A stretch of DNA of 64,000 nucleotides from Dictyostelium discoideum (Eukaryota). Position numbers and translations under genes: made by a program. The stretch is taken from assembly GCA_000004695.1 (NCBI GenBank), contig CM000154.2, forward strand, positions 3,584,001 to 3,648,000. The letters are read 5' to 3'. Of this stretch, positions 1 to 16,601 are shown in pieces. The notes under the pieces are model-generated. The model was not told the DNA's origin. It ran no database searches and worked only from the letters and a program-made list of their open reading frames with translations. Each line of letters starts with the position of its first letter. Position 1 is the stretch's first letter.

Positions 1-3000
1 TTATTATCAATAATAGCACGTTTAATGAATCTACCATAAAGTGAATGATTTTCAATTTGAATCTTTAAATAATTTGAATCATCACCTGTTGATGTATTAC
101 CAAATTGGTTTAATGTGCAAATATCATTTGAATTTGTTGTTAATGATGCTGCCATTACTAATTGAAGTTGATTTAATGAACTTTTAAATTGATATTCTGT
201 AATTTCAATTGTATATTTAATACTAGATGGATTCATTGTTAAATTTTGATTTGCAAATTGAATTGGTGTACTTTGATTAAACCATTCTAAAGCTGCTGTT
301 ATATTTGTATTTGATACTGTTGTAAAGTACTGATTTTTAAATTCGTTAATTGGTGTATATATCCATTGATCGAATTTATAATTATTTACTTCTTTATTAT
401 TAAAATCTAATTCTCTTAATGATACTAATGATATTAATGATTTAAATATCATTTTTTGAGATTCTTCACTATTTGTTTCTGATGATTGACCATTATTATC
501 TGTTGGTATTTCAACATCTGGTTTTGTTGTATTAATTGATGGTTGTGGTACAATAATAATTTGAGAAGTACAAGTTACTCCAATCCATGGTGAATAACAA
601 ATACAACCTGTAGATGAAAAATAACCTTGATTTTTACCACCACATTGTGGATTACCAAGACATTTTTGTGGTGGATTGGTTGGAATTGGTGTTGTGGTTG
701 GTATTGCTGTTGTGGTTGGTATTGGAGTTGTAGTTGGTGTTTCAGTTGGAGTAGTTGTAGGTGTTGGTGTTTCAGTTGGTATTGGTTTTAATGAACTATC
801 AAAATAGATTGGTTGTATTGAGAATTCATTTGATGTGAATCCACCAGCTGTTGAAACTTTAATTTTGAATAATTTATTTGTTTTTTTAATACCTGAAAAT
901 TTAATTGCTGATGATCCATAAAATAATGCTGTGGTTGCTGAATTTGGTGACAATCCACTATCACTATAAGTAATTGTTACTAAATTAACATTTATAAAAC
1001 CTCTACCATATATAATTATTTCACCATTATCATCTGAATAATATTTATCACTTGATGTGATTACTGGTAAATTACTTGAATATGTTGTATCTAAATAATA
1101 GTTTGAATTTAAAACCATTTGAATATCTGATGTAGAATAACCATAATAATAACCACCATTATTTACAATACCATACATTGATATTGTTATAATGCCTGGA
1201 TAACCAAAACCCAATGGTAATTCTGTTGAGCAATTATAAACTGCATTATTTGCGCTGTAAGATATTAATTTAGAATTACATTTTGAAATTTCTGTGTAAA
1301 CTGTTGTCAAATAAATAATTGGTAATTGGTCTTGTTTTATTCCATTTGCACCAGGATTGATTGAAAAATCAAATGAAATTATTCTATCAGGTGAACCTAC
1401 ATCAATTGTGGTTGTTGGTGTTGTAAATGATAATAATATTGGTTTTGAATCAAACATTGTTGAACCTGAACATGTAAATGGTAAAATTGTATTATCTATA
1501 CCTTTATCTAATAAATTAATAAATGGATTAATTATTGAATATGGATCGCCATTTAAAATAAATTTTGAAGATATTTTATTTGTATCAAATAATAAAACTT
1601 TAACGATTCTATATTCTTGTGATATACATGGTTGAGTAATATTAATTAAAATTTGATATTGGCAATTGAATTTATCACCAATTACATCATCGATTGTAAA
1701 ATTGAAATGATAAGTTGAACTATCAATTGAACCCATTACTTTAATATAACCACTTTCAAACCCATTTAAATCATCTGTAATATTAAATTTCCAACCAATT
1801 GTACCTGTTGTTGAAATTACTAAACCATTTCCAATTTTTTCAAGATAACTAAAAATTGGACCTTGATAGTCAAGAACTTTAAAAATAAAAATAAAAATAA
1901 AAATGTTAATTATTAATAATGACAATTAATTAAATTTTCAAACTTACCAGTATTATTTACTATTAATCTTTCATTCATTAAACTATTATCGAATAAATTA
2001 ACATTACCAACATGAATTTGAAATGGAATCATTCCAAACATATTATTCTTTGGTAATATGAATTTACATTCAAATAATCCAGATGTTGAATTAAAAATGA
2101 ACTGATTGTTGGTTAAAGAAAAGTCTTCAGGATTTCTCTCGAATGGAGATGATACAATATCTAGTAAACTAAAATATAACGGAATATCTTGAGGGATATT
2201 TGGTGAATTTAAATAAATGATATTGTAAGATTCACTTTCAATATTTAAATCTAAATTATTTTTTAAAAATGAGATACTAGTAAAATCATTAAAGTTAAAT
2301 TCTATTAAAATTATAAAAAAAAAAAAAAAATTATTAATATTAGAATTGAAAAAAAAATTAATTATTAATTAAAATAAAATTTAATAATTACCATAATCAT
2401 ATGACTGAGGATAATTAAAAACATTTAAAGGATTAGCAGAAAATGGTGTGCCAACATTAAAAACTAAAGAATTTAAAAGGGTATCTTTGATTTCAAATTT
2501 ATCAATACCAACAAATGAAATAATTAATTCAAATGAACCATTATAAATTGTACCACTAATCACTGAAAATTGAATTGGTTGCCCTCCAGAATAGACTGAA
2601 ATACTTTTTACACCATTAACAGATTCAATATCCAATGAAAATAAATAATTGAAATTTGTTATTCTAGTGAAATTATATGATTTAAGAATTGGTGGAATTG
2701 AATCTGAACCTGAACTTGATTCAGGAATTATATATTCATCAAATCTTTCTTGATTTTTTATAAAATAATATTTTAAATAAATTACTGGAGAAAGAAATTG
2801 GGGTCTTGGGAAAGAAACTTGATGTGAAAAATTGGAATTGGTGCCAGAAATAAATCCATACGGCCAATCTTCATTAAAATTAGATATAAAAAAATATTGG
2901 AATTGGGAAAACTGGTAATCATATGAATTTCTAAATGATGCATAGAATAAAGAAACTGTACCAACTGTGGTATAACCAATGAATGGAGATTCAATTCCTA

Positions 3001-3891
3001 GTATTGGGATTGGTGTGACTATTTTTGATATTGAAAAGTTTGAAAAAAAAAAATTAGTAAAAAAAATAATAATATAAAAAAAAAACAATAATACCATACC
3101 ATTAATTTTTGTTGTAAATGTTATTAAATCTACTGATACTCCAATTTCACTCATTAAAGTACTATTGATTAATACACCAGAATTGATTGGATCTTTAGTT
3201 GTATCAATTGCACCTATAAATGTCATATTTCCTTTATAACCTTTAAGTGGAATTGTAGGTACATAACTATTAAATACTTGATAAGGTTTCATAATATTTG
3301 TATTAAGAGTTGATGTAAATAATGGTTGATAACCATAACTCATTTGAGTATAATTTGAATTAATTGATAATATATTTGATGGGAAAAATGTTTCAAAATG
3401 AGTTGTTGGTAAATCTTTCTCTTTAACTAAAAAAAAAAATATTAAAAAAAAAATAATAATAATATATTATTAATAAAATTTATAAAAATCCAATATTATT
3501 TTATTAAAAAAAAAAAAAAAGGTAATAAAAACTTACATAAAGAATAATAAGTATCGAGCTTGAAAGAAAATGATTTACCATCATTAAAATTCATTGTAAT
3601 TTCATATTCTTTAGTTAAATTTAAACCATAAGAAATTTGATTTATCAATATACAATAGTTGAATGAATTTGAAAAGTAAGTATATTGAATGATAGCAGTA
3701 GTGCTTGGAATTGTTTCATAATAATAACCAGGTTCTAAACCTTCTAAAATAATATAGTACAAAAAATAATTTGAAAAACTAATTGGTTTTGTTGAATTTA
3801 CAACTTTTACTTTATCAATATCAATATCTAAAAAGTAATAAATAAACCACAAAAAAATTTAATATATTAATAAATTATATTTTCCATATTC

Positions 3892-3941
<50 letters not shown>

Positions 3942-14613: not shown

Positions 14614-15670
14614 TTAAATGATACTTACCAAATTTGATTTCTAGTGGTAAATCGAAAATAACTAAAGGATCTATAGAAATTACATCACCTGGGTTATAAT
14701 CTTTACCATTTCCCAATTGATCATAAATTGAAACATAAAGAAGTTGATCGGGTGTACCAACTATTTCAAAAACACCATCGTAAATTGTACCACTAACTAA
14801 TGTTCCTGAACCAAAAGCATTTAAAGGTGAGTAAGTATTAATGGATCTAACACCAGAAGAACTTTCAATTTTTAAACTTAATATATACATATAATCTGAT
14901 ACCTTGGTATATCTATATGATATTAATTGAGGTGGTGTAGAAACTTTAGTTGGAAATGTTAAACTTTGATAAATTTCAATATTCGATGAGGAAGAGCCTA
15001 TATAAAAATAATTTGAAGCAGTTGGAGAAGTTTCCTTTAATCTATTAAATGAAGTTTTGAATTCATAATTTGCGTTATTACCTGAATAAAAACCATATGG
15101 CCAACTTTGATATACAGTAACCCCATATATATATAAAAATAAATCAGTACCTTGATATTGATATCCATTGTAAAAACTAAGAGAATTTATTAGAGCTTCA
15201 GTATTTTCTTGAGATAAATAAGTTGAAGTTGGTCCCATCATTGGTATATTTAAATCTTTAATTATTATTATTTATTTTTTATTTATTTTAAAATTAATAA
15301 TTAATAATTAATAATTAATAGTTAATAGTTAATAATTAATAATTAATAATAATTTATAATACAAACCTGTGATATTTGGGTTATATACTGTTGAATCAAT
15401 AGAGCTATATCCATTTGCAGTTACAAGTGTACTACCTCCCATAATTGAACCAATATATGTCATATTTCCTTTTGTACCTTTAATTGGAAGACTATATATA
15501 GGAGAATACATAAAGAAATAATATTGATATGGTCTCGCTATATTTGTATTGATTGTTGATTGAACTACTGGATTACAACTAGACCCAAATTGATTAAAAT
15601 TATATTCTGTTGATAATATTTCTGGTGGATAAAATGTTTCTATATGACTTGTTGGTAAATCAACTTGATT

Positions 15671-15716
<46 letters not shown>

Positions 15717-16601
15717 TATATATGGAAATAAATTAATAACTATTAAATTATAATTTTAATTTTAATAATAAACACTTACATTGACTATAATATGATTTTA
15801 ATTTAAAAGAAATATTTCTATCATTACCAAAATCAAATGTTACATCTAAATCATCAGTAATATTTTGTTGATTGAATTGATAAATTTGCAGCAAATAATT
15901 AAAACGCGATTCACCTGTTACTATTACAGAACCATAGGAATTCTTTAATCTTATTCCAACTGCTTGGTCAGATTTTTCAAGTCCAGTAAGTGAAATGTAG
16001 TATAAGAAAGAACTATAAAGGTAAATTGGAGTTAAATATTCACTAATATTTAATTTATCGAATTGGAAATCTTTTTTTTTTTTTAAATAATATTAAAATT
16101 AATATTTGAACTTAATAAATTACACCAAATCAATTTTTTTTTTTTTTTATTTTTTTTTTTTTTTTATTTTTTTTTTTTTTTTATAATAAATTATAATAAC
16201 TTACCATTACAAGTTAATGTTAATTGATATGTGTGGTCAATTGTATCATTTGTTGAAAATGTTATTACTTGATAATTAATTCCAAAGTTTTGATTATATT
16301 GTGTTGCAAGAATAAACATATAGGAATTTTCTTTTTGAAATTCTTTTTCAATAGAAAAATTTGTATTATTAGTGATTGCACCTGTAATTGAAAAACCACT
16401 TTGAGCTGTTATATAAATTTGGTAACTTTTATATTGGCAATAAGAGTGTTCACTCGAAGCTGGAGAATAAACATAAGTTGGGTTAATATTAACTACTGAA
16501 GCTTGTATGGTTGACTCGGGTGATAATGGCGCGAATTGGGAATTACTGAAATTTCCAAAATAAAAAATAAATAAAAATAAAATTGTTGTTAATATTTTCA
16601 T
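11858..16601 (-). CDS. Tgr-like type I membrane glycoprotein, paralog 3 (complete; ~6 exons)
   Basis: ATG at 16601 (MKILTTILFLFIFYFGNFSNSQ), donor G|GTAAGT at 16204 (phase 1). Exon 2 is ~16075-15790 (DFQFDKLNISEYLTPIY...). Exon 3 is 15672-15367 (acceptor A-run+G at 15673, donor G|GTTTGT). Exons 4 and 5 lie within ORFs 15241-14540 and 14475-14152. The terminal exon ~14088-11858 (694-aa ORF) has the same IPT-like, PT-linker, EGF-like, TM architecture. Its last ~1030 nt are >98% identical to paralog 2, while its middle is only ~50% identical. Confidence 0.7.

Follow-up and report, generated by a model that had tools for sequence, protein, structure and literature searches.

How can parts of a single exon stay nearly identical among tandem gene copies that differ widely over the rest of their length? 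The question is raised by a cluster of predicted surface glycoprotein genes on chromosome 5 of Dictyostelium discoideum, three of which lie at positions 1-16601 of the stretch analysed here (64,000 nucleotides (nt); contig CM000154.2, positions 3,584,001 to 3,648,000 of the forward strand; hereafter, the window), which has a base composition of approximately 22% G+C. All three are on the minus strand, and direct-repeat and BLAST comparisons resolve them into collinear units at 1-4326 (gene A), 4988-9673 (gene B), and 11858-16601 (gene C), with unit spacings of 5345 and 6873 nt. We propose, with a probability of roughly 0.8, that two tracts of the last exon, T1 and T3, are homogenised by continuing interlocus gene conversion in old tandem paralogues of the ComC-like family.

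Block-wise identity and tests of gene conversion

In a three-way nucleotide alignment of A, B, and C, identity in 100-nt windows is 30-75% over exons 1-5 and the introns; exons 1-5 are 24-52% identical among the copies, and their synonymous divergence is near-saturated. The sixth and last exon is built differently (all coordinates below refer to the minus strand). Its first approximately 300 nt (T1), corresponding to the first approximately 100 codons of the exon and the N-terminal part of the DUF7035 domain, are 92-100% identical; by identity profile, pS (the proportion of synonymous differences), and alignment, T1 lies at 1578-1876 in A, 6887-7185 in B, and 13784-14082 in C. Over the next approximately 850 nt (T2; 711-1577 in A, 6056-6886 in B, and 12929-13783 in C), a variable central block that encodes the remainder of DUF7035, DUF7034, and a third beta domain, nucleotide identity is 61-80% and protein identity 55-60%, with a pS of 0.32-0.41 and a proportion of nonsynonymous differences (pN) of 0.25-0.28. 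Identity is again 90-100% over the last approximately 1 kb (T3), which covers the distal part of a Pro/Thr (PT) linker, the EGF-like DUF7949 module, the ComC supersandwich domain, the juxtamembrane region, and the first half of the transmembrane (TM) segment. From identity profile, pS, and block tree, T3 is placed at 5083-6069 in B, 11956-12942 in C, and 1-724 in A, its 3' part in A being outside the window. The last approximately 35 codons, comprising the end of the TM segment and the cytoplasmic tail (4991-5082 in B and 11861-11955 in C), diverge among the copies, with a pS and a pN of 0.29 each between B and C.

The tract limits, read from the alignment, have recognisable surroundings. The 5' edge of T1 is the junction of exon 6 with intron 5, which is not conserved, and T1 fades near codon 100 of the exon. 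For T3, the start lies within PT repeats rich in ACC/ACA, and the end lies in the TM segment, after GCTGCTGTAATA. A preliminary description of the locus, made from the sequence alone, had already proposed gene conversion combined with ectodomain diversification, and both windowed identity and pS confirm that divergence along the exon is not uniform and that conversion tracts are visible. Its example matches hold, positions 2-301, 5347-5646, and 12220-12519 being equivalent at 98% identity, and its figures for the central block (approximately 900 nt at approximately 50% protein identity) come close to the values measured here. Other details need adjustment. The identical block at the 5' end is approximately 300 nt and not 150 nt, and the near-identity of the 3' kilobase, while real, stops inside the TM-coding segment and not at the tail or stop codon. 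The sequence quoted as the boundary occurs in A (655-674) and C (12873-12892) and has a single mismatch in B, but T3 begins 40-60 nt upstream of it, in the PT-linker repeats.

Evidence for conversion comes from synonymous sites. In 50-codon windows, Nei-Gojobori pS is 0.00-0.17 within T1 and T3 versus 0.3-0.7 elsewhere, and where two copies specify the same amino acid, their codons differ in 1-8% of cases within the tracts compared to 14-37% outside them (Fisher P = 1e-17 to 1e-23), a contrast well outside what chance would produce. Given that homogenisation extends to synonymous sites, constraint at the protein level cannot be its cause.

Further support was obtained from two comparison loci, one in a diverged D. 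discoideum isolate (locus tag ACTFIR; GCA_054859385.1), which is one of the tropical isolates of PMC12745789, and one in Dictyostelium firmibasis. In T1, pS is 0.02-0.21 among the D. discoideum copies versus 0.36-0.46 to D. firmibasis, and in T3, the corresponding values are 0.01-0.12 versus 0.18-0.25. For T2, paralogues differ from each other (pS 0.32-0.41) to an extent comparable to their difference from D. firmibasis (0.39-0.46). In both T1 and T3, every D. discoideum copy is distinct from both D. firmibasis copies, and the tracts contain species- and strain-specific residues that are common to all copies. The block trees conflict: T2 groups by orthology, with 100% bootstrap values for B and its ACTFIR counterpart B', for C and C', and for a group of A with a fourth copy, D, that lies outside the window, whereas T3 groups by genome (B' with C', 94%; A with B, 93%). 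The grouping of T3 by genome in two D. discoideum lineages indicates that conversion has been ongoing since these lineages separated. The blocks on either side of T3, T2 upstream and the tail downstream, are copy-specific and orthologous between strains; for the tails, conservation is 94% for B and B' and 91% for C and C', and the tails of D and D' are nearly the same. Because both flanks of T3 keep their copy identity, patch conversion is required, rather than a single unequal crossover.

Gene models, domain architecture and ectodomain divergence

Six-exon models were built from open reading frame (ORF) segments, conserved GT..AG sites, and reading-frame continuity. Gene A, which is cut by the window edge, has exons at 4326-3945, 3827-3537, 3426-3100, 3018-2392, 2301-1948, and 1876-<1; gene B at 9673-9292, 9151-8861, 8749-8444, 8349-7729, 7621-7262, and 7185-4988; and gene C at 16601-16205, 16070-15780, 15672-15367, 15255-14629, 14525-14172, and 14082-11858. 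The ORFs of all three are intact, with conserved intron positions and phases, and the encoded proteins of 1405 (A, completed from the AX2 assembly), 1385 (B), and 1399 (C) amino acids (aa) have the lengths of the NCBI gene calls. By exact look-up, completed A is XP_635933.1 (Q54GM9). Spliced B matches KAM9947994.1 exactly, and is in the same 90% cluster as AX4 DDB_G0290061 (Q54GM8). Unlike A and B, the 1399-aa C model gave no match in an exact look-up in the protein collection; possible reasons are an alternative splicing choice that gives the same length and a missing record. The splice models and the NCBI lengths thus bear out the tandem minus-strand paralogues of approximately 6 exons seen in the preliminary description. 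The term "triplet" is correct for the window but not for the array, which consists of four co-oriented, head-to-tail genes in the order C, transposon remnant, B, A, and D; D, left out of the earlier count, encodes a protein of 1388 aa and is followed by unrelated genes.

The transposon remnant, 102 aa of a DDE_1 (pogo/Tigger-type) transposase, is located at 10799-11107 on the minus strand (Pfam DDE_1, E = 7e-9), within the C-B spacer (9674-11857). It enlarges this spacer, which explains the larger of the two unit spacings. The spacer is approximately 2.2 kb in the window versus approximately 0.76 kb in the ACTFIR isolate, where the remnant is missing, and the remnant is therefore a lineage-specific insertion or deletion within the array. 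Copy content differs as well. The ACTFIR array has an extra B-like copy with a deletion and two D-type copies, and no A orthologue was found in the 23.8 kb examined. In the B-like copy (L001 10001-13834, P0002), the deletion of approximately 1.1 kb begins 43 nt into T1 and extends to the PT linker, so that only the first 43 nt of T1 and nothing of T2 (DUF7035/DUF7034) are left; its downstream endpoint coincides with the start of T3, and the NCBI annotation is an 873-aa protein spliced across the deletion. Copy A of the window has a peculiarity of its own within T3. Its codon at 620-618 is TTT (Phe; context GGKNQGY-F-SSTGCICY), at a site where the Cys of the EGF-like module is invariant in B, C, D, and all 17 aligned homologues. 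The AX2 assembly has the same change. Together with the absence of an A orthologue from the ACTFIR span examined, this substitution suggests that A may be losing function.

From the N- to the C-terminus, the proteins are laid out as a signal peptide, a chain of immunoglobulin (Ig)-like beta-sandwiches, a Pro/Thr mucin-like linker, one EGF-like Cys module, a ComC-type supersandwich domain, a TM helix, and a basic tail of approximately 30 residues, with leader and TM read as hydrophobic segments in the sequence. The hydrophobic N-terminal leader, the C-terminal hydrophobic segment followed by a KKNKQKK-type tail, and 24-29 N-x-S/T sequons are features of type I membrane glycoproteins. The PT linker, EGF-like module, TM segment, and surface glycoprotein type described earlier are all present. 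The order of Pfam matches, every one above the curated cut-off, is DUF7743, DUF7035, DUF7034, DUF7949, and ComC_SSD (in B, at residues 431-505, 656-787, 803-924, 1047-1081, and 1104-1314, respectively). DUF7949 is a 35-residue EGF-like Cys module, and the ComC supersandwich domain (PF22933) scores 60-66 bits in A, B, and C versus a cut-off of 24. By these shared Pfam models, on which the relatedness to ComC rests, the array genes belong to the dictyostelid ComC-like family. The homologues found all come from dictyostelids (D. firmibasis, D. purpureum, D. citrinum, D. dimigraforme, and Polysphondylium violaceum) and are annotated only as "EGF-like domain-containing" or hypothetical; the searches behind this list are incomplete, since B itself was not recovered with the terminal exon as query, and just one protein was recovered with the N-terminal part. 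Within the family, conservation is highest in the EGF-like and ComC_SSD modules.

Structural information comes from AlphaFold2 models built with family alignments, with a predicted local distance difference test score (pLDDT) of 69 for the last exon and 61 for the N-terminal half. Both models are all-beta: chains of beta-sandwiches lead into a PT linker modelled as disordered, beyond which come a small Cys module, a larger sandwich, and a TM helix; a helix is modelled at 683-730. In the N-terminal model, residues 225-354 are unmodelled, and the fold matches are generic only. The best Foldseek matches against the Protein Data Bank (PDB) are LILRB/PirB, KIR, contactin FN3, and complement/alpha-2-macroglobulin MG chains, with ICAM and CEA also among the multi-domain Ig/FN3/MG proteins matched, and the family profile has no match at E<=1 among PDB sequences. 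At the level of fold, the ectodomain is thus predicted to be a chain of Ig-like beta-sandwiches.

To place the divergence of the ectodomain on a scale, six flanking genes were used as a local baseline between ACTFIR and the AX4-type window. These genes have a pS of 0.049-0.076, a pN of 0.002-0.018, and a pN/pS of 0.04-0.27, and are 96-99.6% identical at the protein level, ACTFIR being generally diverged from AX4. For the array orthologues, exons 1-5 have a pS of 0.05-0.09, a pN of 0.04-0.08, and a pN/pS of 0.54-1.04, with a protein identity of 83-96% in this one diverged isolate. The values are 0.09-0.12, 0.034-0.044, and 0.34-0.44 for T2, and 0.08-0.10, 0.013-0.020, and 0.15-0.25 for T1 and T3 combined. 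The replacement rate of the distal ectodomain is 3-6 times that of the neighbouring genes, and exon 4 of the D lineage reaches a pN/pS of 1.8-2.3, with a best P of 0.035 before multiple-test correction. In 90% clustering, A and B are without a partner from nine other Dictyostelium genomes, whereas the neighbouring VPS10/sortilin gene clusters with six. The distal ectodomain thus evolves near neutrality, perhaps with some positive selection locally; the divergence figures are equally explained by relaxed constraint on paralogues that are in part redundant. Over the array as a whole, orthologue pS is 0.05-0.11, close to the flank baseline of 0.05-0.08, and this lack of excess synonymous divergence means that there is no sign of old balanced alleles.

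These data bear directly on the possibility that the locus is a polymorphic kin-recognition locus of the Tgr family (tgrB1/tgrC1-like), with ectodomains kept diverse by balancing selection, as the preliminary description had suggested. There are similarities: the array encodes type I surface glycoproteins with Ig-like-fold ectodomains, its copy content differs between two D. discoideum lineages, pN in the N-terminal exons is 0.04-0.08 versus approximately 0.01 in the flanking genes (pN/pS 0.5-1.0), and the D-lineage exon 4 has the locally elevated ratio given above. Nevertheless, we regard a Tgr-family locus as distinctly unlikely. Pfam TIG (PF01833) has no match in the terminal exons at E<=0.1, in full-length B and C at E<=0.01, or in B, A, and the N-terminal half of D at E<=10, and the Pfam architecture is ComC-like, so that the term "IPT-like" used for the ectodomain is right only as a fold class. 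Moreover, the four genes are on the same strand, with no divergent ligand/receptor pair, synonymous divergence between orthologues near the baseline argues against deep allelic lineages, and the sole signal of a ratio above 1 is the uncorrected one in exon 4. The proposed likeness to kin-recognition loci is therefore weakly supported.

The array proteins may act in cell-cell or cell-particle adhesion or recognition, a recognition role being plausible but unproven. It is conceivable, if unlikely, that the array is a second, Tgr-independent surface recognition system for self/non-self, mating-partner, or prey/pathogen discrimination. Such a system would place copy-number-variable, fast-evolving distal ectodomains and private tails on a germline-homogenised "constant" juxtamembrane module, and conversion would preserve a co-receptor or signalling interface common to the copies even as their specificities diversify.

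Alternatives to conversion and a possible mechanism

A mosaic could also arise if the copies were recent segmental duplicates with very fast variable parts, owing to positive selection or hypermutation, or if they were products of single unequal crossovers (domain shuffling). Unequal exchange clearly also occurs in the array, given the copy-number differences, the deleted B-like copy (B2), and the D/D2 duplicates. Likewise, A and D (L003 15336-24680 / L005 10001-19965) share exon 3 (92% aa identity, pS 0.02) and the whole last exon, while exons 1, 2, 4, and 5 are only 42-62% identical; this second-order mosaic implies additional exchange tracts, placed differently. In D. firmibasis, the copies F1 and F2 arose by ordinary recent duplication (91% identity over exons 2-6), and the mosaic recurs in a fragmentary third copy, F3, whose identity to F2 is 94% in T3 versus 73-74% upstream. 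As an explanation of T1 and T3, recent duplication or single crossovers are nonetheless improbable. The variable parts are near-saturated at synonymous sites and not only changed in amino acids, and every one of them has a clear orthologue in the other lineage. The retention of both T2 and the tail around T3 is impossible by a single crossover, and for the hypermutation variant, the between-strain pS is too close to the baseline.

Strong purifying selection in old paralogues that do not recombine, whether it acted on the protein or on a nucleotide element embedded in the sequence, would account for the constraint on T1 and T3 between strains (pN/pS 0.15-0.25) and for the EGF-like and ComC_SSD modules being the most conserved in the family. 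It is very improbable as the source of the mosaic, since synonymous differences among copies vanish in T1 and T3 (1-8% versus 14-37% of same-amino-acid codons), although the same tracts do gain synonymous change between species (pS 0.18-0.46), and since the T3 copies group by genome. An assembly artefact, in which the near-identical 3' kilobase would be a collapsed or copied consensus, has nothing in its favour beyond the a priori risk in AT-rich repeats and is next to impossible: the same architecture is present in the ACTFIR isolate and D. firmibasis, and the AX2-214 Nanopore+Illumina assembly (GCA_054883475.1; Holland et al. 2025, PMC12745789) reproduces 19.7 kb of the locus (window positions 19737-1, with 16 mismatches and homopolymer-length differences), the proteins over the shared part (all of B and C and 1285 aa of A, identical), and the in-tract copy-specific substitutions, such as Cys to Phe in A and the C-specific residues. 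The concern about a collapse, raised in the preliminary description, is thus removed by an independent long-read assembly.

Several observations weigh against gene conversion as we propose it. The comparison is limited to two haplotypes of D. discoideum and a single sister species. When the sites that vary among A, B, and C were submitted to a Sawyer-type longest-run permutation test, the signal was weak (P = 0.03-0.19); we set this test aside, because tracts that are homogenised in all copies contribute no variable sites. There is no rise in third-position G+C content (GC3) in the tracts, and hence no footprint of GC-biased conversion. The T2 paralogue pS of 0.32-0.41 is not clearly above the species distance, and the copies may thus date from about the time of the discoideum/firmibasis split, not from before it. 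Finally, the confidence of the AlphaFold2 models is moderate (pLDDT 69 and 61), and the function of the array genes is wholly inferred.

Under continuing gene conversion, T1 and T3 would be repeatedly overwritten between copies by non-reciprocal recombination. The process could be self-perpetuating: only tracts that are still similar would be able to pair, so that similarity and conversion would reinforce each other. The limits of the tracts may be set by the AT-rich, indel-prone intron 5, by repeat slippage in the PT linker, and by diverged flanks that restrict heteroduplex extension. Conversion would be tolerated if the membrane-proximal module does a common job. The DUF7035 segment, together with the EGF-like, supersandwich, and juxtamembrane module, might provide this shared function, as a stalk or in co-receptor binding or processing. 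The distal ectodomain would be under weak constraint or diversifying selection, with each copy having its private tail; the distal domains could confer different binding specificities, and the tails different intracellular coupling.

Neighbouring genes and comparison with known systems

Some of the other genes in the window deserve a comment on their annotation. sigG (DDB_G0290071) is encoded exactly at 48186-49463 on the minus strand. The SigG 90% cluster includes AAQ98870.1, named "DNA repair protein RAD50", a name that seems unrelated to a SrfA-induced protein, and it does not contain the ACTFIR SigG orthologue, though this is 96.5% identical by alignment. The gene at 43939-45972 (minus strand) is called "PDZ domain-containing protein" in AX4, but its Pfam matches are only Sortilin-Vps10, Sortilin_C, and BNR, and the name appears to be a misannotation. 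At 39616-43711 (plus strand), adjacent ORFs seem to be exons of a GT2 + GT4/GT1 + GT61 fusion, which is a single 1344-aa gene in ACTFIR; the GT2 part in ACTFIR has a frame break relative to the window ORF. Similarly, adjacent ORFs at 52614-57371 (plus strand) seem to be exons of an SPX + ankyrin + CBM20 + GDPD fusion, which in ACTFIR corresponds to one gene call of 1581 aa that lies, truncated, at the matching edge of the locus.

Along the protein, the division of labour is unusually clear. Each copy has a distal ectodomain and a tail of its own, and all copies share one mid-ectodomain domain and the EGF-like/supersandwich stalk, from which it can be predicted that the shared module binds a common partner and that the variable parts set specificity. 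There is also a practical consequence: the array genes violate the assumption of a single history, so that analyses of dN/dS or trees on this family must go block by block. A literature search found no publication on the array genes or on conversion within the ComC-like family.

Among known systems, one of the closest is ComC with its dictyostelid family of EGF-like, ComC_SSD proteins, as the array genes carry the Pfam architecture by which this family is defined (DUF7743, DUF7035, DUF7034, DUF7949, and the ComC supersandwich domain). ComC is the founding member of the family and acts in developmental cell communication. Kibler and colleagues are said to have described, in 2003, a role for ComC in the lagC/lagD communication pathway. 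In a published list of developmental genes, ComC figures as restricted to group 4 and as secreted/TM, with an EGF domain (PMC4931340).

The array proteins resemble TgrB1 and TgrC1 in being type I surface glycoproteins of dictyostelids, with an Ig-like fold in the ectodomain and fast amino-acid evolution there. Comparative genomics of rapid surface-gene evolution in Dictyostelium has been centred on the tgr family, which is tandem or clustered and subject to duplication, fragmentation, recombination, and copy-content differences between isolates, and recombination-driven turnover has been described for tgr genes in the same genomes (PMC12745789). Such tandem or clustered turnover is common to the tgr family and the array. 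The differences are equally clear: the array genes are without IPT/TIG domains, are located on chromosome 5 and not on chromosome 3 like the tgrBC locus, are co-oriented whereas tgrB1/tgrC1 is a divergently transcribed pair, and have near-baseline synonymous divergence between lineages. An unrelated dictyostelid-specific family thus shows comparable dynamics, with tandem birth and death, a deletion variant, chimeric copies, and, in all probability, ongoing conversion.

Concerted evolution by interlocus conversion is well established in tandem receptors and adhesins, such as the primate KIR and LILR genes, Candida ALS, yeast FLO, and the Hydractinia Alr cluster. Like these systems, the array has homogenised tracts beside divergent, putatively ligand-facing domains, paralogues that within the tracts are closer to each other in one genome than to their orthologues, and copy-number variation. 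It differs in having two internal tracts, one in a mid-ectodomain beta domain and one in the membrane-proximal module, in its copy-specific tail, and in its host, a haploid amoebozoan. Clustered protocadherins and antigen receptors provide another parallel, in that variable outward domains are joined to a shared constant module. In those systems, constancy is achieved by splicing to shared constant exons or by somatic recombination, whereas each array gene has its own copy of the module, which would be kept alike by germline gene conversion; furthermore, the shared part in the array is extracellular and juxtamembrane, and the tail is private. Concerted evolution of tandem surface receptors with conserved stalks and variable heads is a known phenomenon, and the array is distinctive in combining a shared module that is internal and extracellular with a tail private to each copy.

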